Positions 4,836-55,056 of a stretch of 62,820 bases of DNA are shown one piece after another. Under the pieces are notes generated by a model that worked only from the letters and a program-made list of their open reading frames with translations, was not told the origin of the DNA and searched no databases. The stretch is taken from the IMG/VR virus record IMGVR_UViG_3300005549_000008; one strand, written 5' to 3'. Position 1 is the first letter of the stretch. Every line of letters starts with the position of its first letter. The position numbers were made by a program, and so were the translations under genes. The DNA is from an uncultured virus (IMG/VR IMGVR_UViG_3300005549_000008). Taxonomy: Duplodnaviria > Heunggongvirae > Uroviricota > Caudoviricetes.

Positions 4836-5301
4836 CTCTGTTCAGGAATCCCCACCGCTGGATTTTCTTACCAGCGATGAACAACGTCCAACAGCCTCCC
4901 TTGCGCATCTGCACCCGATGAAAGTCGTTACCGCGAATCACGTTGATCATCAGCGGCTTGAGGACTCGCTCGATAATGTCACCGAGCTCGATACTGTACC
5001 GCTCTTCGATATAGCCGCCGGTCAAAATGAGGCTCACCGAAACACCCCAGGGGTGGTTGTGAACTTCGCGGTCGTGGTCGCCACGATAGAAGTAGTGCAA
5101 GAAGACGCCTGGCCACCAGCGTTGCTCCACGATCGGAGTCAGGTAGCACCGCAACAGGTAAGGACTACCTTCGTCATCCTCGATGATTCGGCAACGATGC
5201 TTCAGTCGACGCACCAGTTTCCACAGCACGTCCTCGACCACGATCTCTAAACCCGTGCGGGCGGCGAGCTCGGGCACTTCGTTGGGAAGAGGTAGCTCCA
5301 T
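4747..5301 (-). CDS. Phage hypothetical protein with cupin-like His motifs
   Basis: DHDREVHNHPW...ILTGGYIE...FHRV...WTLF...WGF. Confidence 0.6.
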   Translation of the reverse strand: MELPLPNEVPELAARTGLEIVVEDVLWKLVRRLKHRCRIIEDDEGSPYLLRCYLTPIVEQRWWPGVFLHYFYRGDHDREVHNHPWGVSVSLILTGGYIEERYSIELGDIIERVLKPLMINVIRGNDFHRVQMRKGGCWTLFIAGKKIQRWGFLNRDGTGYEDAEERYRRIFREKTNTRLSPVVD

Positions 5302-9896: not shown

Positions 9897-10009
9897 GTCC
9901 GCAGAGCCCGTGAGAGAAGTTCTTGCACGTGACGCTGCCCTTTTCGAACCACAAGCCGTGCCACCGAATAGCCTAAAATGTATCGCAGAACCAGCTCTCG
10001 CAGCATCCT

Positions 10010-10579
10010 TCAGAAATTCCTTATCACCGAGTTCTCGATCTTGAATCGCCACTCACAACCGAGCCCAGGGCAGCGCGTCCAGTCCGTCAGGTTGATGCTT
10101 CCTGCCAAGGTAACCAGATCTGATGGGTCGGTGGGATTGACCCAGATCTCACCTTGGCGCCGCGTGTCGAGCTCGAACTTTCGATTGCTCTGGTGGATTT
10201 TGAAGTTGGGTGTCTGCGGGTCGCGATGGAGACAGCGCGGACAGGCCATATTCAGAACCAGCTCGTCCGGAGTCACGATCAATTCGCACTTGATCCACTC
10301 GACAGGCTTCCGGTCACTGTTCTGAATCTCGAGCACGATCATCAGCGTGGACTGCTGACCACCGAGGCGCAGCGAGTGCATTCGCGCCTCGAGCGGATTC
10401 TCTCGCGCCACACGAAACTGCTCGTCCTGTTGCTTGCGTCGCTGCTCAGCCTGGGCCCGAGCCTGCTGCTGCTGCTTCTCGTAACCACTGCTGACCGTCC
10501 CGCCTCGGACCCAGGATGTCAGCGGGTTGGCGAGCTCGGTTTTCGGTGCTGCCTTGGGACTATCAGGTGGCTCCGTCAT
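10010..10579 (-). CDS. Hypothetical protein with Cys pairs
   Basis: CPRC and CPGLGC; first gene of the leftward operon. Confidence 0.65.
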   Translation of the reverse strand: MTEPPDSPKAAPKTELANPLTSWVRGGTVSSGYEKQQQQARAQAEQRRKQQDEQFRVARENPLEARMHSLRLGGQQSTLMIVLEIQNSDRKPVEWIKCELIVTPDELVLNMACPRCLHRDPQTPNFKIHQSNRKFELDTRRQGEIWVNPTDPSDLVTLAGSINLTDWTRCPGLGCEWRFKIENSVIRNF

Positions 10580-13903: not shown

Positions 13904-14491
13904 TCACGACTCCCCGGGGTACTCACCTTTTAGGACGTCAAATGCCCGCTGCACGTCCTTGAATTTTTGCTCGGCATTAGCCTTGTCGAAGACGTTGCTC
14001 TGCATGTACTTGTCGGGATGCCACGCTGCGCTTTCCTTCTTGTAGGCGGCCTTGATCTTTGGCCACAGCGACCCTTTTTTCACGCCCAGCACCTTGCAGG
14101 CCCAGGCCGAATCCTCGCCGGGCGCCCGCGCTGCAGCAACCGCCCGCTCCTTGTGCTTGAGCTCGATGAGCTCCACGCAGCACAGAAAGCAGATCGCCTC
14201 ACCCTGAGAGTCAATGCGCGCGTGGTTCAGGCAGCAGGACTTGCCGCAGGCCTGGCAGATCGCAATCGCCGCGCCCGGGCAGCGGCCGGCGACGCGCCCG
14301 CGCTGCATGTGCGGCACCTCGCAGGTGACACCCACGGCCAGCCGATGCAGCCACTTGCCGGTGGCGTTCTCGAGCAGGGTCGTAAACCACGGCCGGAGCT
14401 CGCTCCACACACGACTGTGGGCATCCGGCGGAGCTCCCTGAAAGGCCGAGGCGACCCGCGCCACGGTCGCCATGAACTCGCTGAACGCCAT
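13904..14491 (-). CDS. Zn-finger plus C-terminal DnaJ (J-domain) protein
   Basis: CQACGKSCCLNH...CFLC; IKAAYKK...WHPDK...FKDVQRAFDVL. Confidence 0.85.
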   Translation of the reverse strand: MAFSEFMATVARVASAFQGAPPDAHSRVWSELRPWFTTLLENATGKWLHRLAVGVTCEVPHMQRGRVAGRCPGAAIAICQACGKSCCLNHARIDSQGEAICFLCCVELIELKHKERAVAAARAPGEDSAWACKVLGVKKGSLWPKIKAAYKKESAAWHPDKYMQSNVFDKANAEQKFKDVQRAFDVLKGEYPGES

Positions 14492-14948: not shown

Positions 14949-15677
14949 TTAGGGTGAAGGCCGAATCGTCATCACCATGCGCAGGACGTTGAGATCCAGA
15001 TCTCCTGCGGTGATGTTTTTGACGGCGGGTTGAATCGTCACACCGTTCGCCAGCACCGCGTGGCGGACCGAGCGAATCATGCAGGGCGCGTCCTGCGTGG
15101 CGTTCGTCATGCACTCCTGTTGATAGGGCGCATTGGTGGTCGTGCCGATCAGATCGCCGTTGACCGCGGGTGCGACTGCGATCTGTGACGCCGTGCCGGA
15201 TTGACCGTTGCCGATCGAAGCATCGACTGCGATCTCGAACGTGCGCAAACCCGGACCGTTGTAGGTCAGGATGCCCGCCGCCGCCGTGAGCGTGAACATG
15301 TTCGCGATGACGCTGCCCGCGGCAAAGGTGCCGCCGGTGATCGCCGACCACGTGTTGGTGGTGACCGCCAAGTCAGCCACCCCAGGCGGAGTGAGCTGAA
15401 TCGCAGCCGACCACGCCGGGTTCGCTGACGAGAAGGTGCTGGAGAGTAGGACCCAGCGCCCCGGGCCCGCCGCCGGCACGATGATGGCGTTGGTCACTGC
15501 CGTCGCCGTAGACGCGCGCTGGAACTGAAAGACCGCGCCCGAGGATACGACATACGCAATGGCCCCATCGGGCACTTCGAAGGTGTTCTGGGCCTGCAGC
15601 GAATCGTCGGCGCCCGTGGTGGCCGGGAACGGACCGAGTACCCGCAACGCGGGAGGACTACAGTAATCTTTGGACAT
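14949..15677 (-). CDS. Putative spike/fibre protein, paralog 1
   Basis: Beta-rich; shares RVLGP..GADDSL..NT.E.PDG and TNATQD..P..KNIT blocks with two neighbours. Confidence 0.65.
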   Translation of the reverse strand: MSKDYCSPPALRVLGPFPATTGADDSLQAQNTFEVPDGAIAYVVSSGAVFQFQRASTATAVTNAIIVPAAGPGRWVLLSSTFSSANPAWSAAIQLTPPGVADLAVTTNTWSAITGGTFAAGSVIANMFTLTAAAGILTYNGPGLRTFEIAVDASIGNGQSGTASQIAVAPAVNGDLIGTTTNAPYQQECMTNATQDAPCMIRSVRHAVLANGVTIQPAVKNITAGDLDLNVLRMVMTIRPSP

Positions 15678-15703
15678 AGCGGGTTACCTTCGTTGTGGGT
15701 GAC

Positions 15704-16414
15704 TCAGAGGACGGGTCGCACCGTCATCACCAGCTTCTGGATGTTGAGATCCAGATCGCCGGCCGTGATGTTCTTGACGATCGGATCGATCGTGAAGCCG
15801 TTCGTCAGCACTGCATAGCGCGTCGCGTGGACATAGTTCGGTACGTCCTGCGTCGCGTTGGTCACCGCCTGTTGCTGGATGGCGTAGTCGGTGGTGCTCG
15901 AGACGTCGCCGTTCACCGAGGCAGCCACCGCAACTTCGATCGCAGCACCCGATTCTCCGTTGCCGATCGAGGCCTCGACACAGATCTCGAAGTAGCGCCC
16001 GCTTGGGCCATTGTAGGTGAGTCGCCCGCTCGCCGTAGTGAGCGAGAACAGCGCGCTGGGCGTACCCTGCGACGCGAACACTGCACCCGAGATCAACGTC
16101 CAGGTATTGCTGACGACCGCAAAGTCGGCGAGCGCAGCCGTGAGCTGAATCGCGCGCGAAAGCTGCTCACCTGCACCAGCGACCAGCAATAGCCAGCGTC
16201 CGACCCCGCCCTGGGCAGGAGCCACGATGACACCGGAAACCGCAGTCGCGGTCGAAAACTTGTTCAGTACGAACACCTGGTTGTTGGTGACGACCGCCAA
16301 ACACCCATCGGGCAGTTCCGAGGTGTTGACTGCCTCGAGCGAATCTTCGGCGCCCGTGACCGCGCTGAGCGGACCGAGGACGCGGAAGTCAGGGGGAAAC
16401 AGATTGCTGGACAT
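15704..16414 (-). CDS. Putative spike/fibre protein, paralog 2
   Basis: Same shared blocks. Confidence 0.65.
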   Translation of the reverse strand: MSSNLFPPDFRVLGPLSAVTGAEDSLEAVNTSELPDGCLAVVTNNQVFVLNKFSTATAVSGVIVAPAQGGVGRWLLLVAGAGEQLSRAIQLTAALADFAVVSNTWTLISGAVFASQGTPSALFSLTTASGRLTYNGPSGRYFEICVEASIGNGESGAAIEVAVAASVNGDVSSTTDYAIQQQAVTNATQDVPNYVHATRYAVLTNGFTIDPIVKNITAGDLDLNIQKLVMTVRPVL

Positions 16415-16440
16415 GTGCGGCTCCTATTCGATGATGAGAC

Positions 16441-17154
16441 TCAGGGCGATGGGGTGACCACGAGCGCCATGCGCTCCAACCGGAGATCGGTGCCGTCGGT
16501 GATATTCTTGAATACCGGATCGATGGTCGCGACCAAGGGTAGCGCCACGTCGCGCGTGGCGCAGATGAAGCTCGGCACGTCTTGCGTCGCGTTGGTCGTT
16601 GTTTCCTGCTGAAACGCGAAGTCGTCCGTGCCGGTCACGTCGCCGCTCACCGACACCGCAGCCGCAATTCGAATTCCCGCCGCCGCGGCCGTGTTGCCGA
16701 TCGAGCAGAGCAGCGAGATGCGGAAGATCCGGTTGGCACGACCGTTGTACGTCAGGCGGCCAGTTGCCGTATCCAGCGTGAATAGTCCGGAATCCGGTGA
16801 ATCCTGCGCAAATACGCCACCGGCCGGCCGCGTCCAGGTATTGGCCGCCACCACAATATCGAGCGGTGACGTACTGAGCATCGCCGAGACCGAGAACTGC
16901 TCGCCCAAGAACCCAAACTGCTGGATCCAGGTGCCGCCGCCGGCTGCTGCCGGCTGGTAGACGCCCACCACCGTAGTGGGGTCGAGGTTCTTGTCGAGCA
17001 AGAAGACGCTACCGCCATTTTCTTGCACGAGCCCGAGCGCGCCATCCGGCAGCTCGAACGTGTTGATGGACTGAAGAGAGTCGTCGGCACCGGATACCGT
17101 GGCGCGCGGACCGGTCACGCGGAATTCGTCTGCAGCGAGATTGTTTCGAGCCAT
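16441..17154 (-). CDS. Putative spike/fibre protein, paralog 3
   Basis: Same shared blocks; AAGGA RBS. Confidence 0.65.
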   Translation of the reverse strand: MARNNLAADEFRVTGPRATVSGADDSLQSINTFELPDGALGLVQENGGSVFLLDKNLDPTTVVGVYQPAAAGGGTWIQQFGFLGEQFSVSAMLSTSPLDIVVAANTWTRPAGGVFAQDSPDSGLFTLDTATGRLTYNGRANRIFRISLLCSIGNTAAAAGIRIAAAVSVSGDVTGTDDFAFQQETTTNATQDVPSFICATRDVALPLVATIDPVFKNITDGTDLRLERMALVVTPSP

Positions 17155-21108: not shown

Positions 21109-21858
21109 CTACTGAACGTCTCGAGAGAACAGACCGTCGAACGTGAACGTGATGATCTTCTGCGCGCCGTCGATGGCGTTGAGGTTGTCGCGGAAGCTCA
21201 TCATGTTGCGGGTCCCCTGGGTCAGACCGAAGAGGCCGCTGTTGTCCTGTGGAAGCGAGAAGATCTTCGCCTCGCAGAGGATGTTCTGACGGGGCGGGAT
21301 GAGGATCGCACGCGCGAGCCGCAAGATGCCCGAGTGACCATCATCACCCTGGTTTTGCCAGTGGATGAGGTCGGTCGTGCCGCCCATGTCGCCACTGATG
21401 CCACCGCCGGCCGGGAAGTACCAGGTCGGCATGTTGATGATGCTGTTCTTGAGCCCGGTGCCGAAGCTCCAGTGCAGCTGCTCTTCCGCCTGGAAATGCA
21501 AGCGGTAGATATCCTGCACCTGAGCAGGCGCCTGACCGACACCGATACCGCCGACCTGCCAGGGAGCGATCAGACCGTAGTCGCCGTTCTGAGCGAGCTC
21601 GGTGGCGACGCCACCATTGACGCGCAGGCGCGGATTGCGGAACCAGGTGAAGCAACGCAGAGCGAGCACGACGTGGCTCTGATCGGACGGCAGCGTGCTG
21701 CCGTTGATCAGGTTGGTCGTCGCGTCGGTACGTGCGCCGTTGTTGGTGAACAGGTTGGTGATGTCGCCGACCTGACCGGCAACGAAACCCGAGGTGCGGA
21801 TCAGCGTATCGAAGAACGGCTGATGCACGCGCTCACGAATGGAAACTACTTTGGCCAT
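21109..21858 (-). CDS. Putative major capsid protein (single jelly-roll candidate)
   Basis: QPFFDT...LF...TNLINGSTLP; terminal strand ITFTFDG; AAGGA RBS; flanked by hairpins; follows the core protein gene. Confidence 0.55.
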   Translation of the reverse strand: MAKVVSIRERVHQPFFDTLIRTSGFVAGQVGDITNLFTNNGARTDATTNLINGSTLPSDQSHVVLALRCFTWFRNPRLRVNGGVATELAQNGDYGLIAPWQVGGIGVGQAPAQVQDIYRLHFQAEEQLHWSFGTGLKNSIINMPTWYFPAGGGISGDMGGTTDLIHWQNQGDDGHSGILRLARAILIPPRQNILCEAKIFSLPQDNSGLFGLTQGTRNMMSFRDNLNAIDGAQKIITFTFDGLFSRDVQ

Positions 21859-21993: not shown

Positions 21994-23982
21994 TCAGCCG
22001 AACACTCCCTGACCGCCGTCGGTTTGCAGAATGCCCGCCGGCACCATCTCGGTGGCCGCTTGACCACGGTTGATGGCGCGAGTGCCGGCCCAGAGCGCGC
22101 CGTCGGTGGTACCCGGGATCCAGGTATTCGCCGAAGGCACCCGCTGGATGCTGTCACCGAGACCGGCCGCCGCTTCGTACGGAGCCACACCCACGCCGCC
22201 CACGCCGGCCGCCGCTTCGACGATATCGAGCTGACGCTCGAGATCACCGTTGGGGTCGATGTGGTTGGTGTTGCGCGTTTCCTGAGCACCCATACCGGCC
22301 GCCGCCTCGAACATGTCGGGGTTCTGACCGTAGTGACCCATGCCGGCCGCCGCTTCGTACGGAGCTACTCCGAGTCCACTCACGCCGCTCGTGAAGTACT
22401 CACCCAGGCCGCTCATCCCGTTGTTGGTGAAGTACTCGCCGTACCCGCTCGTGCCGTTGTTCGTGAAGTACTCGGACAGGGGCGTGTAGTGCGGCATGAT
22501 GCTCGCGCCCACGCCGTACATGGCCGAGAGTCGCGCTGCCGTACCGTCCTCGTAGCCCGACAGCATCGCCGCTGCCTTGGGTTGGACCTTGTTCAGCACA
22601 GCCACGGCGAGGTTGTGCACCAGACCGAGCGCCATACCGGTGATGAGCGTGACCTTGGTCGCGTTGTCCTTGACCGCCTTGTTGGCGATGAAGGCACCGA
22701 CCGGGAAGGTAATCGCTGCACCGATCAGCGCGCGGTAAGGCTGCAAAGCCTCGAGACCACTCGCCGCTGCAGGCTGCGCCGCCTCGGGTTTGCCGATCAC
22801 TCGAGCAAGCAACTGCTCGGACACCAAGTAGGAGACGAGCTTTTGCGCACCGAAACCGGCGAACGCGAGCGCGCCGAGCTTGGCTCCGGCCACCAACGTG
22901 GTCATGAACCCTTCGTTACGACGGAACGCTTTGCGTCCGTTGCGACGATGACTGCGCCGACGATTGGCCTTGAGGCGACGTCGACCCGCACCCCGACGCC
23001 GACGCCGGTTCAGGTTGTACTGACCTCGACGTGCCGAGGATCGCATGTGGCGAGCCACCGAGCGCGACCCGCGCCGTGCCTTGCGCCGCGTGCGCCGAAT
23101 CGTGCGCCGCTTGCGCGGTGCTGCCGCCTTGGCCTTGCGCCGACGCCGACGGGGAGCTGCCGCCCGCACCTTGCGCGTCTTGCGCCGCTTGCGCCAACCC
23201 TTGCGAGCCGCCTTTGCATGACCTGCGGCATCACCGCGCCAGTGATTGCGACGCAGCTTGCGCCGACGCCGACGGGGAGCTGCCGCCTTGACCTTGCGGC
23301 GCTTGCGACGAGTGACCCTGCGCTTGGGAGCAACAGCCGACACCTTTCGACGGCGACGGCGACGGCGGGGAGCCGCCGAGGCGCGCGACGCGGAGGAGCG
23401 ACGACGCCGACGAGCTGGCCTGCTGCGAACCACGGTCTTGCGACGACGACTTGCTTTTCGCTTCAAACGACGCATCGATTTTCTCCCTTGGGCTTTCCTG
23501 GAACTACGGTTTTTCTTGAATTTCACGGTGTAACGAGCCGCCGAGCGCGCTCGTGCCGGCCGGCGCCGCCGAAGAGGCAGCCGCCCGCCATTGCGCGCCA
23601 GCCGCGAACGACCCCGAACCGGCGCCGCCGACCGACGGATCACGCGGCGCGCGCGGCTCGGCCCGACATTGCGACGGGACGCTTTGGCTGCCCGGCGAGA
23701 CGCTTTCCCCCATCTTTGCTTCGCCCGTTGCATCTTGGCGACAAATGCTCGCTTTTGAGCCGAGTTCAGCTGGTGCCGAGCTCGACCGAGGCGGGCCTTG
23801 CGACCCCGCAAACCCGACATGGAACTGCGCGCTGAGCGGTAGGAGCCGCGGCCGTTGATGGCTGCAATCGCCGTCACGCCGGGGTTGCTACGAAGACTTC
23901 GGCCGCGCCTACGCGGACGTGCATAGCCGTAGCCTTCTACGTCTTGCTTGCGAATCTTGAACGCTCGACCGACTGCCGCCAT
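21994..23982 (-). CDS. Protamine-like core / membrane polyprotein
   Basis: About 355-aa Arg/Lys-rich N-terminus (AAAPRRRRR repeats), central hydrophobic helices, C-terminal GEYFT and EAAAG(M/L/V)G repeats; GAGGT RBS. Confidence 0.75.
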   Translation of the reverse strand: MAAVGRAFKIRKQDVEGYGYARPRRRGRSLRSNPGVTAIAAINGRGSYRSARSSMSGLRGRKARLGRARHQLNSAQKRAFVAKMQRAKQRWGKASRRAAKASRRNVGPSRARRVIRRSAAPVRGRSRLARNGGRLPLRRRRPARARSAARYTVKFKKNRSSRKAQGRKSMRRLKRKASRRRKTVVRSRPARRRRRSSASRASAAPRRRRRRRKVSAVAPKRRVTRRKRRKVKAAAPRRRRRKLRRNHWRGDAAGHAKAARKGWRKRRKTRKVRAAAPRRRRRKAKAAAPRKRRTIRRTRRKARRGSRSVARHMRSSARRGQYNLNRRRRRGAGRRRLKANRRRSHRRNGRKAFRRNEGFMTTLVAGAKLGALAFAGFGAQKLVSYLVSEQLLARVIGKPEAAQPAAASGLEALQPYRALIGAAITFPVGAFIANKAVKDNATKVTLITGMALGLVHNLAVAVLNKVQPKAAAMLSGYEDGTAARLSAMYGVGASIMPHYTPLSEYFTNNGTSGYGEYFTNNGMSGLGEYFTSGVSGLGVAPYEAAAGMGHYGQNPDMFEAAAGMGAQETRNTNHIDPNGDLERQLDIVEAAAGVGGVGVAPYEAAAGLGDSIQRVPSANTWIPGTTDGALWAGTRAINRGQAATEMVPAGILQTDGGQGVFG

Positions 23983-46609: not shown

Positions 46610-47614
46610 TCATATGCCCAATGCTTCCTTGAGAAGCAGGTAGGCTTCTTGGACCTGATGGTAACGAGCAACGATCTGGTCGTTGCCGGGGTTCTTGTCG
46701 GGATGAAAGCGCGCCGACATTCGGCGGTAGGCCTGCTTGATGGCTGCTGCGTTGATGTCCTTGGTTTCCCAGCCGCGCTTCGCGGGGATGCGGAGCACCT
46801 CGAGCGCCTCAGTGAGCTGGTCGCGCTTGATCTGCCGCGCCTCGCGCCCGGCCGGCTTCTGCCGCGACAAGCGCACGCTCATCAGCATCTCTTGGAAGGC
46901 CGCGTGAACCCCACCCTTGAAGTCTTCGGTGATCTCCTCGATGACGCTTGCGCTTTCGAGATCTCGTAGCCGCGTCTGCACGAACGCCTTGGACGGCTCC
47001 AGAATGGAGCCCGCGATCAGTTTCCATAGGAGCTTCGCTTCGTCCCCATCGCCGTCCACCAGGTGATCGCTGATGGTCTTAGGCTGGCGCGGACGCCGCG
47101 GCGCCACGCGCTCGCGCGTCGGCTTCGCCGGGATAACCTCGGACGGAGGGCCCGGCTTGGCTGGGTTGACCGCCGCAATAGCGAACTCGAAGGCGGTCAC
47201 GAATCGACGGTGCCCCTCACGCTGGGATGACTTCCGATCCAGGCCACCCTCCTGGAACTGTTTGACCGCGGCTTCGTAAGCATGGCGGGCATAGGTGGTG
47301 GCTCGGTTGATCCGGGAGGGCGACTCTCCCAGTTCCAGGTGCCGCCAAATCGCGGCTACCGGAAAACCTTCAAACTCGAGCTTCAGGGTACGCGCCCGCG
47401 CAATGTAGATGCTGACGCCTTCGCCGCAGAGCGAGGCGAGCCACGCGGCGCTGTACCCGTCCTGTCGCAGGATGGCCTTGCGATCCTCTTCCTTCATGGC
47501 CTCCCAGATCATGGCTTCGGAGAGAGCCTTCTCTCGCCAATCCTCGGTGGCGATGCGCAGGCGGTACTCAGCGAGAAACCTCTGAGCGTCGGGAGTGAGC
47601 GGAGGGTAGGCCAT
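46610..47614 (-). CDS. Protein with C-terminal J-domain
   Basis: IKQAYRRMSARFHPDKNPG..YHQVQEAYLLL. Confidence 0.85.
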   Translation of the reverse strand: MAYPPLTPDAQRFLAEYRLRIATEDWREKALSEAMIWEAMKEEDRKAILRQDGYSAAWLASLCGEGVSIYIARARTLKLEFEGFPVAAIWRHLELGESPSRINRATTYARHAYEAAVKQFQEGGLDRKSSQREGHRRFVTAFEFAIAAVNPAKPGPPSEVIPAKPTRERVAPRRPRQPKTISDHLVDGDGDEAKLLWKLIAGSILEPSKAFVQTRLRDLESASVIEEITEDFKGGVHAAFQEMLMSVRLSRQKPAGREARQIKRDQLTEALEVLRIPAKRGWETKDINAAAIKQAYRRMSARFHPDKNPGNDQIVARYHQVQEAYLLLKEALGI

Positions 47615-47617
47615 TGA

Positions 47618-48547
47618 TCAGAGCCCCTCGAGCTGTTTACGAAGGTCGTCGATGAGCCGATCCTTCTTGCGGGCCTCGGACTCGAGTTGGTTAGCCAGGG
47701 ACTGGCCCCGCGATTGCATCTCGATGAACCGATCCAGGATGCTGGTGAGCTGCGCGCGCCGCTCGTCCTTCAGAGCCTGCAGCAAGTCGTCGAGTGACGT
47801 GCGTAGCGCCGCAACGGACTGGAGCTCCTCCGTAAGCGACCGGGCGAGCCCATCCAGGGTTGCAAATTTATCGGTCAGCCTCTGATCCAATCCCGCAAAC
47901 CCCTGCACGACGCCCTGCAGGTGGGTGGCAACCATCGAGAGCTGGCCGGTCAACTCGGTGATTGTGTCCAGAGCCGGATCGGCGGTCGCGCCGGAGTCAG
48001 CGATTGGCTCTCCTTCGGGAAGATCCGCCGGCTCCGTGTACGTGGGATCGTGCGGCCACAGCAGCGCCTTGAGTGCGCGCCCGTCTTCGTAGAGCGCCGC
48101 CAAGGCAACAGTCAGAACACGCTCCTTCTGATCAGCGGTCCGGCAACAGTAGAGCACCGCGTGCGCATCGCGTTCTTCGGTGATCAGTTTCTGCTCGACC
48201 AGTCGGGACACGAATCCAGTAAACCAACTCTTAGACGAGAGCTCCTTCTCTGTAGCCTTGGAAATCTTGGCCGAGATCTCGAATGGTGGATGGAGCATGT
48301 CCCTCCGCGAAAAGACGGACCCAGATTTGGCCAGGTTGAGTAGCGCGGAGATAGCGAGCAAGTACCGGGCCCTGTTACGATCCTGGGCGCTGCGCGTGAG
48401 CTCATTGAGCCTGTCGCGAAGCTCGAGGGGGTCGATGTCTTCAGGAAAACTCATTCTGGGATGCTCTACGTGACCGGACCAGGGAAGCTTCCCCTGGTTG
48501 AGGAGGTTGACATCAGATTGATACCAAAGTAGCGTCCGAAGCCGCAA
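47618..48547 (-). CDS. Hypothetical protein, wHTH-like plus coiled coil (start uncertain)
   Basis: FVSRLVEQKLITE; C-terminal heptads. Confidence 0.6.
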   Translation of the reverse strand: MRLRTLLWYQSDVNLLNQGKLPWSGHVEHPRMSFPEDIDPLELRDRLNELTRSAQDRNRARYLLAISALLNLAKSGSVFSRRDMLHPPFEISAKISKATEKELSSKSWFTGFVSRLVEQKLITEERDAHAVLYCCRTADQKERVLTVALAALYEDGRALKALLWPHDPTYTEPADLPEGEPIADSGATADPALDTITELTGQLSMVATHLQGVVQGFAGLDQRLTDKFATLDGLARSLTEELQSVAALRTSLDDLLQALKDERRAQLTSILDRFIEMQSRGQSLANQLESEARKKDRLIDDLRKQLEGL

Positions 48548-48706
48548 CCCCGAAACCGAAGGAAGATGGTGGCGGCGTCCGCCGTAGGACGACGCGACGA
48601 CACAAAATGGACTAGGTCACCTTCACGAGCTACCCCCGGCAGCGTCAGACGCTCCATGGCTCCCCCCCCGGTCATGAAGCAGCGAAAGCGTTACCGGGGG
48701 TAGTTC

Positions 48707-49366
48707 GTGGCGGCGACTGATGGAAGCGACCTGATGGGAAACTGGAAGGAGGAGTTATTGCAGCTGGCGCCGATGATGGCACTCGCCGCAGGCGCATGGG
48801 TGGCGCTGGTTGGTTGGTTGGTTGGGTACTTACGGAATCGCCGCGCCGCTCGGGCCCTTCGGCCACAGCAGGAGGACATCACCAATTTCCACCCGTGGAT
48901 GCTGCTGAGTCGGCTTCGGAATAACCGTGAGCCACGGGAGATCCCGGCGGTTCCGGGCTCGGTCGTGCTCGAGGGGACCCTGCTCGGTGACATGCTGGCG
49001 GTGACGGTGGTGAGTATCGGTACCGATCCAATTCAGCTACCGGAACACATGTGGGATCTTGAGGTGGGTGACCGGTGGTACACCGTGAAACTGATGACCG
49101 CGCGTGGGGATCGATTGGACGAGATCGGTGTGGGTGAGCTCGACCGAGATCCAATTCTGGGTTCGCGTCCGGAGCCCGAGTATCGATCAGGGATCTTTGA
49201 CGGGGAGCCACTGACCTCTCCGCCGTACCGAAGTGTTGACAACAGGGGCTCCGCGGCGTCTCGTGTGCTGACCCAGAACACGGCGTTCGTGGTGAGCGGA
49301 GTGACGGACGAGGACGCAGAAAACGTTGTAGCTACCCTGCAACGAGAGTTGAATGGATCCAGATGA
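48707..49366 (+). CDS. Membrane-anchored hypothetical protein
   Basis: N-terminal TM; first gene of the rightward operon. Confidence 0.6.
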   Translation: MAATDGSDLMGNWKEELLQLAPMMALAAGAWVALVGWLVGYLRNRRAARALRPQQEDITNFHPWMLLSRLRNNREPREIPAVPGSVVLEGTLLGDMLAVTVVSIGTDPIQLPEHMWDLEVGDRWYTVKLMTARGDRLDEIGVGELDRDPILGSRPEPEYRSGIFDGEPLTSPPYRSVDNRGSAASRVLTQNTAFVVSGVTDEDAENVVATLQRELNGSR

Positions 49367-49707
49367 GACTTCTGGTGCGCGTGATGTTCTGGTTGGATGC
49401 GTTGGTGCTCGCTGTCTTGATGCTGGCTCCCGGAACTGTCGCGCCCTGGATGTGGGGCCTCGCGGCGCTGCATCTTGCCGCCGTCGGCTGGATTTGGAGC
49501 AACTGCGGGCTCGACTACCGAGCGGCCTACGAGACCGAGGTGGTGGCGCACCAACAGACGCGCGACTGGATCGAGAGCGAGCTCGTTCAGCGCAAGCTGG
49601 AGGCGGAGGTGATGGCGTATTGTCGCCAGCATCTTCAGTCTCAGGATCGCCGTCCGAGTAGAGAGCCAGCGACGGCGCGAACTTTTGACCTGAAGAAGTT
49701 GAATTGA
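49363..49707 (+). CDS. Two-TM hypothetical protein
   Basis: ATGA overlap; two TM helices then coiled coil. Confidence 0.6.
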   Translation: MRLLVRVMFWLDALVLAVLMLAPGTVAPWMWGLAALHLAAVGWIWSNCGLDYRAAYETEVVAHQQTRDWIESELVQRKLEAEVMAYCRQHLQSQDRRPSREPATARTFDLKKLN

Positions 49708-49741
49708 ATCAGCAAGACGATCGTCTTCTAGGAAAAGACCA

Positions 49742-51388
49742 ATGAGCACCGCCTCAACCCCAGCCGCCCCTCCGTCGCGTACGCGACAAGCAAAGGACAA
49801 GGTCAAAGCCAAGCGAGAGGAGCGCTTGATGCGCGCCGTGCGCGTGGAGCTGGTGAAGCCTCTCGGTGTCGAAACGTGGGATACGATCGGGCCGCTGCTG
49901 CGCACCTATCGATCGATCATGCATCGACTGACCAATGCGGCGGTGCTGGATGCGATCGAGATGGTCAACCGCCAGCGTCGCGGTGAAGTAATCAAGGCGG
50001 CCAAGGAGGTCTCGGCGCCGTACCACGACGGCATCCCCAACCCGCAGACCGCGGCCTACCGAGCGATTCCGGTCGAGCTCGCGAACATTCGTGACTGGTA
50101 CACGCGCGAGCTCGATCGTGTGAAGCGAGGCGGAGAAAAGCGCAAGGGTAAGAAAAAGCAGAAGGTGAGACAGTTAAAGCAGGTGCCGGTGGCGACCACC
50201 GAGGAATCACCGGAGGCGACAGCGCTGCGTGTGCGTGAGCGCGAGATCGCTCGTCTCAGTCTGCTGGCCAATGTAGAGATCCCGGGTGCGGTGCAGGCTA
50301 CCATTTCGCAGTACGCCTGGACGGCTGCAGGTCGCTGGTTGAAGGATCGCAGTTCGCGGATTCCGTCGGCCAAGCTCAATGCGCCGATCCCCATCCGGCG
50401 GGGCGATCCCAGTAACTACGATGCGCAGTTGCAGATGGACGATCAAGGACGACCTCAGCTGCGTCTGAAGCTGCGCGCGATTGGTCACGTGACCTTTGCG
50501 GTACGCGCGGGCCATGGCGCGAACTGGCAGCGTCTGCGTGACATCCTCTCAGGTAAGGGCGGCGCCGAGCAGGGCGACGTGAAGCTTGTGTACGACGACT
50601 CTCAGCGCGGCGAGGACGGGCGACGCCGGGGTAAGTGGTTTGCGATCATTGCGTTCTCGGTACCGAAGCCGGCACCGGCTGACCATCTCGATCCCCGCAA
50701 GGTCTTGGTGCTCCACCGCGGGCACCGGAATCTGCTCGTGGCGATGGGCAGCGACGGGGACTACCGGGTGGTGGCGCGTGGCGGCAAGCTCACCGCGGCG
50801 AAGCGACGGTTCAAGCGCCGCCGGGAAGAGCTGAAGCGCATCTCCCAGGCCGAGCGCGGCCCCGGCGCGACCGGTCACGGGCGGCGTCGGTTCTACGCGC
50901 TCCCAGAGTCTCTGGAGCACAAGGAAGCGGACTTCATCAAGACCTTCTGTCAGCAGCTCGCCGCGCAGGTACGCAAGCTCGTGCTGGAGCTCGGTTACGG
51001 TACGGTCAAGATCGAGGACTACGGCGGCATTGGTCCCGATGATGTGCGCTCGGTGAGAAGGTTTGTTGACCATCCGCCGTATCACCAGCTGCGTGATGCA
51101 ATCAAGAACGCTTTGGAGTCGATTGGTGTTACACTCGGCACCTATCCGCACGAATACATCAGCCAGACCTGTCCGGCGTGCGGCAATCAGGATGCCGGTC
51201 AGCACAACCTGCGCACCGGCATATTTCATTGTCGCCGCTGTGGGCTCGATCGGCTTGCGGACTGGGTGGCGCCCCTGCATGCTCTACGGCGTTCGAATGG
51301 CGGAGTGGCGGGCGCGTGGGAGGACATGATCAAGACCGAGCAGCGGCTCGGTGGTTCTTTGAAAAAAGAAAGGCCCAAACCGGACTGA
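49742..51388 (+). CDS. cas12f: Compact type V CRISPR effector (Cas12f/TnpB family), predicted nuclease-dead
   Basis: N-terminal VRVELVKP, IPS..PIPIR, KWFAIIAF, GHGRRR, RuvC-II GTVKIED, Zn finger SQTCPACG..CRRCG, RuvC-III LAD; RuvC-I reads VLVLHRG; adjacent tracrRNA and array. Confidence 0.88.
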   Translation: MSTASTPAAPPSRTRQAKDKVKAKREERLMRAVRVELVKPLGVETWDTIGPLLRTYRSIMHRLTNAAVLDAIEMVNRQRRGEVIKAAKEVSAPYHDGIPNPQTAAYRAIPVELANIRDWYTRELDRVKRGGEKRKGKKKQKVRQLKQVPVATTEESPEATALRVREREIARLSLLANVEIPGAVQATISQYAWTAAGRWLKDRSSRIPSAKLNAPIPIRRGDPSNYDAQLQMDDQGRPQLRLKLRAIGHVTFAVRAGHGANWQRLRDILSGKGGAEQGDVKLVYDDSQRGEDGRRRGKWFAIIAFSVPKPAPADHLDPRKVLVLHRGHRNLLVAMGSDGDYRVVARGGKLTAAKRRFKRRREELKRISQAERGPGATGHGRRRFYALPESLEHKEADFIKTFCQQLAAQVRKLVLELGYGTVKIEDYGGIGPDDVRSVRRFVDHPPYHQLRDAIKNALESIGVTLGTYPHEYISQTCPACGNQDAGQHNLRTGIFHCRRCGLDRLADWVAPLHALRRSNGGVAGAWEDMIKTEQRLGGSLKKERPKPD

Positions 51389-51566
51389 CCCCCAGAATCC
51401 TGGCAACGAGATGGTACGACGCGGTCGCTCCAAACCGCAAACGCGAGAGGTTAAATCCTGCTCGCGAACCCGTCGGTGCTCGCACCAGCGGGATTCCCGC
51501 TAGATCACTCTAACGGGAGGTCTCCAATCCGCCGTTTCGATGCCAGGTTTCTGGGAGTCAGTTCGG
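51380..51566 (+). repeat. 35-bp imperfect inverted repeat enclosing the tracrRNA
   Basis: 51380-51414 pairs with 51532-51566 (29 Watson-Crick, 3 G-U, 3 mismatches). Confidence 0.8.
51415..51531 (+). ncRNA. Putative tracrRNA
   Basis: Four hairpins; loop GCTCC (51427-31) complements the repeat 3' GGAGC; GGTCTCCAATCC (51519-30) pairs with repeat GGATTGGAGGTC. Confidence 0.8.
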
Positions 51567-51621
51567 GGCGCTCGTAATGTGCGGCGCAAGGTCGCGAGAT
51601 CGTTGGTCTGATAAAGCGCCG

Positions 51622-54138
51622 CTCGCGCCCGATCGCAGAAGGATTGGAGGTTGGAGCTGCTTTTGGAAAGAGGGCGACACCGCCAATGGGGCTCTCGCGC
51701 CCGATCGCAGAAGGATTGGAGGTCGGAGCGACCCCAGCCGGATTTCGGGGATGTGCAGGTAGGCGACTCGCGACCGAGCGTAGAAGGATTGGAGGTCGGA
51801 GCTTCATGAACCAAACCTCCACGCACAGCGTATAGAAGGATTGGAGTTCGGAGCGTTCCTTGCATGATCGTGGTCTTGCGGGTGTGCGAGCTCGCACCAA
51901 AGCGCAGAAGTATTGGAGGTCGGAGCACAGGTCGAGGCCTTAGCGCTCCGCCAGGCGATGATCTCGCGACGTCGCACAAAAAGGATTGGAGGTCGGAGCC
52001 GATAGGCGCGGATGATCGTTCGCTCGTCTACTTGCGCCTCACGACCGAGCGTAGAAGGATTGGAGGTCGGAGGGCACATCACGGCATATGCTTCATCGGC
52101 GTCGAGCACCTCGCGACCGAGCGCAGAAGGATTGGAGGTCGGATCAGCGCCGACTATGCGCGCATTGGACCTGCGCTCCACCGCTCGCGACCCGAGGAGT
52201 AGGAGCGATCATCGGTCACCCGGGGCGGTGCAGAAGTATTGGAGGTCGGAGCAGAATGACTCTCAAGATTGACAGCCAGCCGTTGGCAGCTCGCGACGGA
52301 TCGCAAAAAGGATTGGAGGTTGGAGCGTGACAGCCGCGCGCGAAAAGGATCCCGCGGTCGGGCTCGCGACCGAGCGCAGAAGGATTGGAGGTCCGGAGTA
52401 ACTCGTGGTGCGCTCGATGACGCCAGCTTTGCTCCCTCGCGATACAATATGATTGGAGTCGGAGCGAAGGGAACGACGAGTCGCTGAAGCTTCAGGTATC
52501 GGTGCAGAAAGATTGGAGAGCGGAGCGGTAAGTGCAGGGCTACACCGCTCTGGTGCGGGCCAGAATCGCGAATCGATCGCAGAAAGGATTGGAGGTCGGA
52601 GCTGAGGTCAGAACAGTGTTAAGCGCTACCCGAAACGAACCTCGTGACCGAGTACAAAGGATTGGAGATCGGAGCGACCAGCATGAAAGTCGAATCATCG
52701 GCGTTCGAATGCTCGCGACGGAGCGAATAAGGGATTGGAGTTCGGAGTATATTGCAATGGAAATCACACGCGAGTGCAGAAGTTGTGATCTCACGCAAAC
52801 TGGTGCAAGGATTGGAGGTTCGGAGCAACGAGCAGCGAAGGTCCGCCAGGCATCGGCATTGGCACTCGCAACCGAGCAGAAGGATTGGAGGTCGGAACTC
52901 GAAGTCGTTGCACCGGAACCCGGTAATCTTCGTTGCTCGCTACTCCGCACAAGAAGGATTGGAGGTCGGAGCATGGTGCGCGGCGAGTACACTAACCTCA
53001 TTCGGTCAGCGACCGGCTCGCGCCCGATCGCAGAAGGATTGGAGGTCGGAGCAAGAAATTGGCATGATCCGGAAGGCGGTTGCAGCGGGCTCGCGCTCGA
53101 TCGCAGAAGGATTGGAGGTCGGAGCGACCTAGGGCTCCCGTGGGACCAGGCCGCGGAGGAGCTCGCGCTCGATCGCAGAAGGATTGGAGGTCGGAACGGT
53201 GCGGGATCGATCTTGTGTTGCGCGTGGTGCTGTGCTTCGCGACCGATCGCAGAAAGGATTGGAGTTCGGAGCATGCGGTTGCAGCAAGTCACCGGCGATG
53301 TTGCAAATCTCGCGGCCGATCGCAGAAAGGATTGGAGGTCGGAGCTCCATGCAGGTCCGCAGGTAGTTGCGCGCGGCCTTCAACGCTCGCGACCGAGCGC
53401 AGAAAGGATTGGAGGTCGGAGCGACGGGAATAGTCATACCCTTGAGAACAGCACAAAGCTCGCGACTGAGGCGCAAAAGGATTGGAGTTCGGAGCGGGTT
53501 GAGGCTGGCTACGACGAACGGGACGCAGAAGGATTGGAGGTCGGAACTCGAAGTCGTTGCACCGGAACCCGGTAATATTCGTTGCTCGCGACTCCGCACA
53601 AGAAGGATTGGAGGTCGGAGCGAACTCACAAACCAAGTGCAGAAGGACTGGAGGTCGGAGTTTGTTCAAGCCCATGGCCTAGGCGACGTGCAAGAGCGGC
53701 CGCGCAGCTCGCGATGGGAGAGTAGAAAGGATTGGAGGTCGGAGCGGCTCCTCCTGGGTGTACGTATCGTGTCGGACTCACTCGCGACGGAGCGCAAAAG
53801 GATTGGAGTTCGGAGCTAAGTGGCTCCTTGGCAGGGCTCCCGGCGAGCTCTGCCTCGCGACCGGGCGCTCAAGGGATTGGAGGTAGGAGTGTTGCCATGG
53901 GACTCATCGCATAAGGATTGGAGGCCGGAGCGTTGAGGTCGACGAATCCAGCACGGATGACGACGGCTCGCGACGGATCGCAAATGGAATCGCCGATTGA
54001 GAGCGAAAGGACTGGAAAGCGGAGCATGGTCGAGGCCGTGTTGTTAGGGTGACGATCTTTGAAAGGATTGGAGGTCGGAACAGGCAGCTACGTCAGCTCG
54101 TTTGCTGGCGCGCATGAAAAAGTATTGGAGAGCGGAGC
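51622..54138 (+). CRISPR. Degenerate CRISPR array, about 37 repeats, consensus CTCGCGACCGA(T/G)CGCAGAAGGATTGGAGGTCGGAGC (36 nt), spacers mostly about 36-38 nt
   Basis: About 72-nt period with a recurrent GGATTGGAGGTCGGAGC core and unique intervening sequences. Confidence 0.93.
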
Positions 54139-54165
54139 GCAATGAGTACCAGGAAGGAAAAAACC

Positions 54166-54756
54166 ATGAAGATCAAATCATTCGAAGGTATTGTGCAACA
54201 CTGTCGAAATCTGCGTGTCGAGTTCGAGCGCGACGAGGCCAGGTTCTTCCTGGGTCTCTGGCACACCGAACAGCAGTATATGGAGTTCTTGCGTACCAAC
54301 GGATACGATGTATTTGCGCGTTTCCTGACAAACCATGATCTCTGTGATCCAGCTCGCTACGCGACATTCGCAGCTGGTTTGAAGCACCTGGACTCTCCGA
54401 ATGATGCGCTCAAGATCGGGGCCAAGTCGGTGATGGCGCTCTCGGCAGTGCACGACTCGCGCAACGTGCCAGAGTTCATCACGGCAGTTACGTCGTTCGC
54501 GGATCAGCACGGCGGTACGCTGCCGAGCCACCAGAAGGCTCGGCAGTTGTTGCGCCAGGTGGATCCCAGGAAGGAAACGCCGCGCGCGGTATCACAGGCG
54601 AACGAGAACGCCCGGCTGCGAGCAGAGCTGCAGCAGGTCAAGACGGAGCTACGCGCCAAGGAGGCGGAACTGAAGACTTGGAAAGTCCGTGCTGAGAAGG
54701 CAGAGAAAGCGCTCGGACGCCTCAAGGACTCGCGTGTCGTTGCGCGTCCTGATTGA
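54166..54756 (+). CDS. Hypothetical protein with C-terminal coiled coil, directly after the array
   Basis: AGGAAGGA RBS before ATG 54166. Confidence 0.7.
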   Translation: MKIKSFEGIVQHCRNLRVEFERDEARFFLGLWHTEQQYMEFLRTNGYDVFARFLTNHDLCDPARYATFAAGLKHLDSPNDALKIGAKSVMALSAVHDSRNVPEFITAVTSFADQHGGTLPSHQKARQLLRQVDPRKETPRAVSQANENARLRAELQQVKTELRAKEAELKTWKVRAEKAEKALGRLKDSRVVARPD

Positions 54757-54781
54757 CATCAGAATGATACCACTGTAGACG
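54753..54781 (+). promoter_or_regulatory. Sigma70-like promoter
   Basis: TTGACA-N17-TAGACG, 8 nt before ATG 54790. Confidence 0.45.
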
Positions 54782-54789
54782 AACACAGG

Positions 54790-55056
54790 ATGTCAAAGGG
54801 CTCTGGGGCGAAACCTAAGACCCAGATGAAGCTCGTGTTGACTTGCTTCGAGTGCGCTACACAGGTGCGCGCGCTGTTTGTGGATGAGCAGATCCATTCC
54901 AGAACACTCTTTCGGGAAACCGGCTGGGTGCTCTCTCTGATAGATCCAAGCGAAGCCTGTGTGGCACCCATCTGTCCCGGTTGTGCACGGATGCTCTACG
55001 GGGAAGAAATGCTGGAGACGGTCCGTAAGAAATTTGATGCCGATGAAACCGACTGA
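54790..55056 (+). CDS. Small Zn-binding protein
   Basis: CFEC...CPGC. Confidence 0.6.
   Translation: MSKGSGAKPKTQMKLVLTCFECATQVRALFVDEQIHSRTLFRETGWVLSLIDPSEACVAPICPGCARMLYGEEMLETVRKKFDADETD

Follow-up and report, generated by a model that had tools for sequence, protein, structure and literature searches.

Is a viral CRISPR array in which many repeats have lost their 5' half a frozen set of guides, or is it still being written? The question was raised by a locus in a 62,820-nt stretch of virus DNA (the window), in which a Cas12f1-like effector gene, a predicted tracrRNA, a leader and an array follow each other on the plus strand. A preliminary description had taken the array for a fixed, domesticated guide library and not an immune memory.

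The Array and Its Shortened Units

The array (51622-54138, plus strand) contains 37 repeats of 36 nt, with 36 distinct repeat sequences, and 36 spacers, which are mostly 35-38 nt long in full units. When up to four mismatches were allowed, a 17-nt core was matched 34 times on the plus strand of the window, always within the array; the minus strand yielded three weak matches, all outside it. The core was exact in 11 of the 37 units and had at most one mismatch in 27 and at most two in 30. Two units have lost the core and retain the 5' half, namely R9 (52184-52206, plus strand), in which the long-duplex core is deleted, and an orphan 5' half (53966-53987).

The median period of the array is 73 nt. 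The seven sites at which truncation had been described were confirmed as shortened units, i.e., R4 (period 52 nt), R10 (46 nt), R14 (61 nt), R28 (52 nt), R30 (40 nt), R34 (41 nt) and R36 (56 nt). In total, nine shortened units on the plus strand keep the 3' core: R4 (51820-51854), R10 (52219-52252), R13 (52436-52465), R14 (52491-52526), R28 (53509-53547), R30 (53625-53661), R34 (53896-53931), R36 (54046-54081) and R37 (54105-54138). A 97-nt unit, spacer 19 with its flanking repeats, is present twice on the plus strand (52876-52972 and 53525-53621, 98% identical), indicating internal recombination. Recombination thus duplicates and shuffles units, whereby decayed units are dispersed over the array and the repeat next to the leader is changed. 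At the leader end, a shared 5' half is found only in R1 and R2.

Three Zones of the Repeat and Two Duplexes with the Predicted tracrRNA

Identity to the consensus was 493/629 at repeat positions 1-17 and 659/703 at positions 18-36 (paired Wilcoxon p 5e-7, which is optimistic because the units are related), and conservation was 94-97% at positions 18-36 and 73-79% at positions 7-17. Among the 26 units whose period is normal, 147 of 156 positions (94%) were conserved in the 5' hexamer, 225 of 286 in the middle (7-17) and 478 of 494 in the 3' part. Each repeat is thus built of three zones, a kept hexamer, an eroded middle and a kept 3' part, and the statement that only the 3' half is conserved was right about the 3' part but too strong in its "only". 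The decay was verified to be array-wide, without a significant trend from one end to the other (Spearman rho 0.26, p 0.12). The pattern of a decayed 5' and a kept 3' half was also seen in six related arrays (L006, L011, L022, L024, L025 and L029), mostly at the trailer end, and 8 of the 14 arrays profiled had near-homogeneous repeats.

The predicted tracrRNA (51389-51545, plus strand, with putative ends) is a series of hairpins without an Rfam match, and its hairpin-then-stem layout is also found in relatives. Its long anti-repeat (51519-51530, plus strand) can pair with repeat positions 20-31 by 10 Watson-Crick and two G-U pairs. Over 13 loci, this duplex had a mean of 10.3 pairs, compared to 6.3 when loci were permuted, and no value as high was obtained in 20,000 permutations. 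The preliminary description knew this duplex alone, but the last five repeat bases pair with a separate tracr hairpin loop: stem-loop 1 (51421-51438, plus strand) has a loop (51426-51433) that would form a short repeat/anti-repeat duplex, a pseudoknot, with them. For this short duplex the 13 loci had a mean of 5.15 Watson-Crick pairs with their own repeat end, compared to 3.88 after permutation (again 0 of 20,000), although it is weak in L008 (3 pairs). In the window six changes disrupt it (G35 in five units, C36 in one). Covariation thus shows the 3' 19 nt of the repeat as the predicted crRNA handle, with a long duplex (20-31) and a short pseudoknot duplex (32-36).

Nine of 11 deletions spared the core, while 4.9 were expected (p 0.008). 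As both duplexes are matched locus by locus and deletions spare the core, the proposed selection on the pairing of crRNA and tracrRNA was supported. The core variants had been placed at the two G-U wobbles, and they do cluster at positions 29-31, opposite these pairs (16/108, compared to 9/324 at positions 20-28; Fisher p 2e-5; R9 excluded). Nine of these 16 variants disrupt pairing and seven preserve it, so that the site is a tolerant hinge rather than a conserved wobble. A third anti-repeat, in which 9 bp of the leader (51591-51599) would pair with the repeat 5' end, was rejected because this complementarity is broken in L011. No match to a sigma-70 promoter was found at 48400-55000.

The Leader and a Possible Source of New Spacers

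A leader motif (51570-51576, plus strand) lies at -52 from the first repeat and departs from the clade consensus at a single base, 51575. Of 15 viral arrays, 13 have the motif between -51 and -53, at a background of 0.9%, and the other two lack it there. For bacterial leaders, Cas1 hits in 62 genomes were used to select 40 regions. The motif was present at -52/-53 in six of eight arrays of the 36-nt Cas4-Cas1 kind, compared to one of 15 other arrays; two of the eight I-G-like leaders are without it. All six motif-bearing loci encode a Cas4-Cas1 fusion, and two of them also GSU0053 and Cas3. A second element (51586-51605, plus strand), in which AAG at -34 to -32 and T at -18 are conserved in 14 leaders, is presumably IHF-site-like. 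Two composed leader patterns gave 0 hits in 401 bacterial genomes and 3 in 151, compared to 6 control hits, none of them an array.

Neither cas1 nor cas2 was found among the ORFs of the window (33 compared with Pfam, 89 with PHROGs), which represents 62.8 kb out of roughly 130.6 kb of the contig, so that cas1, like self-targets, could lie in the remainder. Cas1 was also missing in all five related records, two of which are viruses 93% and 97% complete. Nevertheless, the claim that selection does not act on integration by Cas1-Cas2 had to be abandoned, because the 5' hexamer, the 36-nt length and the phased leader motif are all kept.

Spacer Turnover in Related Viruses

The relative L011 is identical to the window over 391 nt of cas and also over the tracr region, up to 51565. 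At the leader end it has 10 full-length repeats in identical blocks with spacers that are absent from the window. As L011 is known from a metagenome contig of 2 kb, in which identical cas and tracr sequences are followed by 10 leader differences, a crossover or a chimeric assembly could account for the junction. Only two of its 19 spacers are shared, both at 35/36 nt, and their order is reversed, in conflict with a frozen spacer order: spacer 5 together with R6 (51927-51999, plus strand, same repeat variant) stands after spacer 18 (52827-52864, plus strand) in L011. L002 shares none of its four trailer spacers with the window. The sister viruses L022 and L023 are identical at 1759 of 1760 nt over cas and leader, but their three leader-proximal spacers differ and the next five are common.

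Leader-polarised spacer gain was thus found in L011 and in L022/L023, and not within the strain of the window. This gain at the leader end of a relative speaks against a frozen array, and the differing spacers of L011, L002 and L022/L023 against a fixed, domesticated library. The array of the window strain itself looks slow-changing: array pieces were identical to the window in all four sequencing runs examined of 24 listed (released 2017 and 2025), without joints among the pieces listed, none of which spans the array, and contigs drop rare variants. RNA data were not among the 24 runs listed, from which nothing follows for expression. The old truncated units seem to stay functional.

A Proposed Explanation and the Targets of the Spacers

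We consider it likely that the virus carries a type V CRISPR locus that depends on a tracrRNA and descends from Cas12f1, and that guides are still being written into its array; the effector is probably nuclease-dead. An integrase of the host, acting in trans, would insert new spacers at the leader end; the most likely candidate is the type I-G Cas4-Cas1/Cas2 of a myxobacterial host, which would read the -52 leader motif, the 5' end of the repeat and the 36-nt length, and not the repeat middle. As only the first repeat would have to be an integrase substrate, and as processing would proceed via the tracr duplex and not via a repeat hairpin, the middle could drift and the 5' half could be lost. 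Old units would shed their 5' half and become a handle with a guide of about 18-25 nt. The H-E-D effector would bind guide-matched DNA uncut and block transcription or replication. The window shows a strain whose array consists mostly of old units. As targets, competing viruses or further mobile elements that share the host are slightly favoured, and host genes or own genes are the alternative.

No convincing protospacer, and hence no PAM, was found for the spacers of the window or of L011 in the following searches. The window array retrieved 11 records from phages (best E 3), 19 from plasmids (E 9) and 65 weak hits when compared with 401 genomes from the phylum of G005; the best of these (E 1.4e-5) spans the end of a spacer and the start of a repeat. 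The L011 leader spacers gave three weak hits in the same 401 genomes, and window spacers 1-2 gave three hits (20-21 of 36 nt) in 301 genomes of the class. These genome searches are weak because only two candidates per genome were scored. Exact seeds of window spacers 19, 18, 5 and 1 and of L011 spacer 3 were found 10, 4, 0, 0 and 4 times, respectively, in IMG/VR, and no hit extended beyond 27/37 or 23/36 nt. When 191 spacers from 17 arrays were compared with the window, the related loci and three whole virus records, matches were at chance level, except for spacer 9 of L022. Two further candidates were discarded: a 16-nt self match of L006 spacer 3 was within chance (shuffles gave three matches of at least 16 nt in 20 rounds), and L011 spacer 18 matched the SNF2 gene of the window (18/20 nt at 56659) at shuffle level.

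Spacer 9 of L022 stands behind a truncated repeat and matches its own genome at 26/29 nt, the first 16 perfectly, inside an arginine-rich gene. The three mismatches, at guide positions 17, 20 and 23, are all transitions and non-silent in this gene. The match is an argument for the view that acquired spacers which match own or host genes are retained as permanent repression guides in truncated form. A dead effector would tolerate such self-targets, and arrays aimed at promoters accompany a dead Cas12f in another clade (PMC13472631). We regard this view as unlikely, since it has one clear case among 191 spacers, which may derive from a related virus, and none of the window spacers finds a match of 13 nt or more for its 5' end in the window outside the array. 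The same doubt applies to the wider picture of a large clade of probably myxobacterial viruses with a programmable repressor, made up of a dead Cas12f1, a leader that mimics type I-G, a conveyor-like array and permanent handle-plus-seed guides, some of them aimed at self or host. If true, such a system would represent an extant transitional form that links immune memory to a fixed RNA-guided transcription factor.

The Effector and Its Partner Gene

The effector (548 aa, 49742-51388, plus strand) has a database form that starts at residue 30. It matched PF07282 (E 2e-8), the best phmmer hits were SpCas12f1 (E 1.9e-19) and AsCas12f1 (E 6e-18), and PADLOC assigned it to Cas12u3 (E 6e-26). The AlphaFold model (pLDDT 84) had AsCas12f 8j12 as best Foldseek match (E 1e-24, TM 0.60/0.76). 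RuvC-III and the C4 zinc finger are complete, and the triad reads H325-E425-D507 (H-E-D), i.e., His325 (codon 50714-50716, plus strand) aligns with the RuvC-I catalytic aspartate of Cas12f1 and replaces it. The histidine is invariant in the 30 closest homologues. Among 157 homologues of at least 380 aa, the residue is H in 112, R in 24, N in 14, D in 4, K in 2 and L in 1, and thus not Asp in 153. RuvC-II varies to G, D, Q and A in the wider clade. In the comparison with the profile, 360 clusters (50% identity) had E-values of 1e-30 or better.

The effector is, judged by these residues, probably nuclease-dead and would bind DNA without cutting it. It was weighed against an active effector (nuclease, nickase or RNA-processing) with a rearranged site, which would make the locus one of ordinary inter-virus immunity. 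Activity is favoured by the intact E425, D507 and zinc finger and by the invariant histidine among close homologues, and conserved substitutions can mark rearranged yet active sites, which are common in TnpB (PMC10691335). We nevertheless judge activity improbable, since R, N and K at RuvC-I and the variation at RuvC-II are what a dead site predicts, and a self match of 26/29 nt, such as that of L022, would do harm if the effector cut. In addition, a histidine at RuvC-I abolishes cutting in Cas12m2, where it cannot hold the second metal (PMC10442227).

Downstream of the array lies a conserved partner gene (54142-54756, plus strand) for a protein of 204 aa with residue 9 as probable start, a DUF3102-like lead and a C-terminal coiled coil. 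A tblastn match was obtained in 13 distinct loci of the 30 loci L001-L030. Atlas neighbours of the protein scored 0.91-0.95, with DUF3102 at ranks 9 and 11; no Pfam family was above cut-off, and no HTH family was hit. Of the relatives, one fell in a Sandaracinaceae and another in a Gemmatimonadales bin, which makes the proposed host uncertain. The terminase PF03237 gave one weak match in four virus records, none above cut-off.

Rival Readings: A Fixed Library and Neutral Decay

The original idea of a fixed, domesticated library, no longer served by an integrase, now appears quite improbable. It draws on the decay without polarity, the window-identical pieces in all four runs, the common 5' half in R1 and R2 alone and the motif mismatch at 51575, where L011 has the consensus. 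The equivalent of this position varies in bacterial leaders too, rare variants are lost in contigs, no listed piece covers the whole array, and the spacers of relatives differ in a leader-polarised way, only 2 of 19 being common with L011. A fixed library is thus refuted for the lineage, and at most the strain of the window has stalled. Neutral decay, in which slippage and gene conversion homogenise the core and old units are unselected, is very improbable: duplication and shuffling were observed, two units lost the core and the core served to find the units, but the boundary of conservation follows both tracr duplexes, with a dip at the hinge, the asymmetry recurs in six related arrays whose repeat sequences differ, and conversion alone gives no preference for the 3' half.

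Comparison with Known Systems

Type V-F1 (AsCas12f1, SpCas12f1; formerly V-U3) is closest to the locus in sequence and fold. The zinc finger is common to both, and so is a tracrRNA with long and short repeat/anti-repeat duplexes, which for the window is predicted from covariation at 13 loci; according to PMC11246509, type V-F uses both duplexes and the bulge between them is dispensable. In contrast to the D-E-D triad of V-F1, the window has H-E-D, with Asp at RuvC-I in 4/157 homologues. It also differs in its 548 aa with insertions, the viral location, the lack of adaptation genes among the ORFs scanned, the conserved partner gene and arrays that shed the 5' half. V-F1 works as a homodimer on one guide, with a T-rich PAM and double-strand cleavage.

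V-U24 is described in one sentence (Altae-Tran et al. 2023, PMC10691335) as a Cas12 that has a noncanonical RuvC-I and is accompanied by an HTH protein whose function is unknown. A noncanonical RuvC-I is common to both clades, although this description does not state the V-U24 residue and gives no tracrRNA, leader, host or viral context. The window also has a conserved partner gene, with a DUF3102-like lead, for which no HTH family was hit. Compared by description only, the identity of the two clades is conceivable, at slightly less than even chances. Beyond this possible sentence, no description of the clade was found in the literature searched; a Cell 2022 survey of virus-encoded CRISPR systems, which could cover it, and bioRxiv supplements were outside the scope.

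Cas12m (type V-M) also has a histidine at RuvC-I. The triad of Cas12m2 carries two changes (H-D-D), while Glu and Asp remain in the window effector (H-E-D). Like the proposed system, Cas12m silences by binding, is borne by mobile elements and has no adaptation genes of its own. Cas12m2 is described with a single crRNA and no tracrRNA, whereas the window anti-repeats covary with the repeat, and the Foldseek match of the effector to Cas12m2 was weaker than that to AsCas12f (E 3e-12 versus 1e-24). For a myxophage Cas12m, a kept D-E-D and no tracrRNA are reported (10.64898/2026.09.14.751636). Cas12r of Thermus Lalka phages (10.64898/2026.04.20.719267) is likewise a phage type V system without adaptation genes for which a host integrase and inter-element conflict were proposed, but it is an active nuclease without tracrRNA, unlike our reading of the window effector.

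Cas12k (V-K CAST) resembles the proposed system in its dead effector, tracrRNA, use of another type's integrase and shared leader motif. For Cas12k, truncated repeat-spacer units with only the tracr-pairing part and a probably borrowed integrase have been described (10.1101/2021.02.06.429022). The window differs in having many truncated units inside the array, a Cas12f1 fold and a borrowed integrase that looks I-G, not I-D. The Tn7-like genes tnsB, tnsC and tniQ were not found among the window ORFs (33 versus Pfam, 89 versus PHROGs), with half of the contig visible. The comparison with bacterial type I-G leaders leads to a testable claim on how viral arrays without adaptation genes are written, namely that the viral leader copies their phased motif. 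In addition, the array is a natural mutational map of the repeat bases for guide use versus spacer integration.

RNA-guided DNA binding by a nuclease-dead effector is known from the Bacteroidetes dCas12f proteins, which form a sigma-E-linked and an array-linked cluster; one cluster has arrays, and repression was predicted for it (PMC13472631). As far as described there, they have C-terminal truncations and single guides without tracrRNA, whereas the window has a complete RuvC-III, a zinc finger and a predicted tracrRNA with an array; no sigma factor gene (rpoE) was found in the ORFs that flank the effector (Pfam, PHROGs). The results point to a widespread clade of compact, non-cutting, tracrRNA-dependent Cas12f proteins, which could serve as a small CRISPRi scaffold. 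A path to dCas12f via an array reduced to half repeats has been proposed (PMC10691335), and in the window array this path is apparently in progress.

Genomic setting of the array

The CRISPR array comprises 37 repeats (51622-54138, plus strand) and begins 233 nt behind the effector gene (49742-51388, plus strand; 548 aa), which lies upstream. The partner gene (54142-54756, plus strand; 204 aa) follows immediately after the array. It was conserved in 13 distinct of the 30 related loci, and no HTH match was found in its product. Its position varied, i.e., it was located between cas and tracr/array in L004, L005, L008, L009, L014, and L024, but 3' of the array in the window, L012, L017, and L022. 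A 26-nt sequence with a perfect -35 hexamer at its start was present in two copies of 88% identity, one where the coding strand switches ahead of the cas operon (48507-48532) and one directly after the partner gene (54753-54778); it is a probable viral promoter or operator.

The window looks viral, because it encodes DnaB, a DnaC-like loader, a sliding clamp, DNA methyltransferases, a dCTP deaminase, and a SNF2 helicase, and because the genes behind the array are 92-93% identical to those of the IMG/VR contig L002. It covers about half of the element, as the effector's database record is on a 130,572-bp contig. A 249-aa protein (21109-21858, minus strand) matched no Pfam family over the cut-off and had 618 homologues, the best 120 of which were 66-100% identical. 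It was predicted to be a single jelly-roll, with the Sulfolobus polyhedral virus 1 capsid as best, albeit weak, match (Z 6.4, rmsd 3.7, 136 aligned), and it may be the capsid protein of a large group of non-tailed viruses. The adjoining gene (21994-23982, minus strand) encodes 662 aa, of which the very long N-terminal half is rich in arginine, and it resembles the arginine-rich gene of the related locus L022 (11369 onward). Three tandem paralogous genes without family matches (14949-17154, minus strand; 236-242 aa) are probably structural. Two proteins have a DnaJ-like C-terminal domain (46610-47614; 13904-14491, minus strand); both matched phrog_14336, and the first also matched PF00226. A cysteine dioxygenase-like gene and two family 1/4 glycosyltransferases are encoded at 4747-5301 and 7516-10052 (minus strand), the latter family also in L020 and the genome record G003.

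The effector

The effector was nearest to Cas12f1 by sequence, profile, and predicted fold (against AsCas12f: E 1e-24, TM 0.60/0.76). His325 takes the place of the RuvC-I aspartate; Glu425 and Asp507 remain, as does the zinc finger. The histidine was invariant in 30 aligned close homologues, and in 157 homologues of at least 380 aa the distribution was H 112, R 24, N 14, D 4, K 2, and L 1. At E 1e-30 or better the profile gathered 360 clusters, with active Cas12f included at the far end. In Cas12m2, according to the available text of PMC10442227, a histidine at this position leaves one metal and no cleavage, which suggests by analogy that the effector has lost DNA cutting. In L007 (4640-4990) the cas reading frame runs at its 3' end into the tracrRNA, and the long C-terminal tails of the homologues P0009-P0014 and P0017 are translated tracr sequence, likened to TnpB omega-RNAs.

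Predicted tracrRNA and repeat decay

A 12-nt anti-repeat (51519-51530, plus strand) pairs with repeat positions 20-31, the pairs at 29 and 30 being G-U; this is the duplex meant in the preliminary description. In addition, the final five bases of the repeat pair with the loop of a hairpin (51421-51438, plus strand). This hairpin was present in 14 array-bearing loci, including L011, which is near-identical to the window, and its loop changed along with the repeat end; none was found in L006. When repeats were permuted among 13 loci, which are not phylogenetically independent, own-locus pairing was 5.15 pairs versus 3.88 for the short duplex and 10.3 versus 6.3 for the long one, and the observed values were reached in none of 20,000 permutations. 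L008 was weak in this test. The layout of a long plus a short duplex is like that of V-F systems, for which the accessible part of PMC11246509 describes the intervening bulge as dispensable, and it accounts for the conserved repeat 3' end and a tolerant hinge. In L015 and L019 the hairpin lies about 700 nt after cas, and no array was detected in the sequence examined. In L009 (2467-2560) a partial repeat lies close behind the long anti-repeat, and the two could form a natural single guide.

The 17-nt core was exact in 11 of the 37 units and had at most two mismatches in 30. Consensus identity was 493/629 cells at positions 1-17 and 659/703 at positions 18-36. As had been proposed, the 3' half was best kept, but not alone. 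Three zones emerged from the 26 units whose period is normal: 147/156 cells matched at positions 1-6, 225/286 at positions 7-17, and 478/494 at positions 18-36. Variants concentrated at positions 29-31 (16/108 versus 9/324, R9 excluded), in line with the proposed clustering at wobble positions, but 9 of the 16 break pairing. All seven places named as decayed were shortened units, and decay indeed ran along the whole array, without significant polarity (rho 0.26, p 0.12). The units share descent through duplication, which makes the p-values of the repeat comparisons optimistic; one 97-nt unit occurs twice inside the array. Nine of 11 deletions spared the 19-nt core, versus 4.9 expected under uniform placement (p 0.008), a count somewhat biased in that the core was the means of finding units. 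The same asymmetry was seen, with different repeat sequences, in L006, L011, L022, L024, L025, and L029; 8 of the 14 arrays profiled had near-homogeneous repeats. Locus-matched duplexes, core-sparing deletions, and the asymmetry in six relatives support the view that selection acts on crRNA-tracrRNA pairing. In L006 (7788-9140) the trailer periods shrink to about 30-37 nt, and the G002 array (L063, 1-1020), which is divided across the contig ends, contains internal duplications and 5'-truncated repeats.

Leader motif and spacer integration

Cas1 was searched for and not found in five related records, among them viruses of 93% and 97% completeness. Of 15 leaders, 13 carried a 7-nt motif at -51 to -53 (background 0.9%), and L009 lacked it at -52. 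For comparison, 40 regions around bacterial Cas1 genes were used from the class of G005, the Sandaracinaceae genome bin behind L008; we take class and phylum to be Polyangia and Myxococcota. Among bacterial arrays whose 36-nt repeats end as the viral repeats do, six of eight had the motif at -52/-53; among the others 1 of 15 did, with one more at -54. A Cas4-Cas1 fusion is encoded at all six motif-bearing 36-nt loci, and GSU0053 and Cas3 at two of them; these loci are presumably type I-G.

Leader motifs at fixed spacing guide integrases to repeats of diverse sequence and proper length (10.1101/2023.05.26.542337, available part), and cross-type integrase borrowing is proposed for Cas12k in the part seen of 10.1101/2021.02.06.429022. 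Given these precedents and the shared phased motif, integration constraints are visible in the leader, the repeat 5' end, and the repeat length, contrary to the claim that selection does not act on Cas1-Cas2 integration. The window motif departs from the consensus once, at 51575, a position at which L011 conforms to it. This change might slow spacer acquisition, but is only a lead, because bacterial leaders also vary at the equivalent position.

Array turnover

L011 shows no difference from the window in 391 nt of cas or anywhere in the tracr region, and differs from it at 10 leader positions. Its array starts with ten full-length repeats in identical-variant blocks of 5, 2, 2, and 1, a signature of repeats being duplicated at the leader end. 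None of the spacers of these ten repeats occurs in the window; 2 of its 19 spacers are common to both, in reversed order, and a third partly. The L011 contig may be recombinant or chimeric, but its array shows polarity on its own. L022 and L023 are identical at 1759 of 1760 nt over cas and leader; their three leader-proximal spacers differ and the next five are common to both. None of four L002 trailer spacers is common to the window. Leader-end gain was therefore seen in L011 and L022/L023, and together with the L002 trailer this refutes, for the lineage, a fixed, domesticated library. The array of the window's own strain seems to change slowly: its pieces, nearly all at least 99% identical, were found in all four sequencing runs examined (two rhizosphere 2017, two soil 2025), whose short contigs cannot reveal rare variants.

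Targets and function

Searches of phages, plasmids, and bacterial genomes and seed scans of IMG/VR yielded no convincing protospacer for the spacers of the window or of L011. Among 191 clade spacers one matched clearly: L022 spacer 9, behind a truncated repeat, matched its own genome at 26/29 nt, the first 16 perfectly. The matched gene is the arginine-rich gene of L022. It is compatible with L022 regulating itself and also with the spacer having come from a related virus. We lean slightly towards silencing of rival elements by binding only, given the rapid turnover of the arrays and the predominant role of virus-borne arrays and of Cas12m in conflict between elements (PMC11656645; 10.64898/2026.04.20.719267; both as far as available). 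Host or self regulation is favoured next. That acquired guides to own or host genes are kept as truncated permanent units is rather unlikely.

Comparison with known systems

For this clade, the literature searched described neither the tracrRNA and the viral setting nor the I-G-like leader and the decay of the repeats. Other systems are described in the accessible parts of PMC10910872 and 10.64898/2026.09.14.751636. V-F1 membership fails on the RuvC triad (His325 for Asp), V-M on the predicted tracrRNA in the window locus, and V-K on the absence of a transposase among the window ORFs scanned; membership in the sigma-E dCas12f group also fails, by the available part of PMC13472631. The system combines a Cas12f1 chassis, a V-F layout of the predicted tracrRNA, and predicted silencing like that of Cas12m, and the truncated units of Cas12k, as partially described, parallel its truncated repeats. 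V-U24 has a noncanonical RuvC-I and an HTH partner (PMC10691335, available part), and the window system, compared by description only, may be V-U24.
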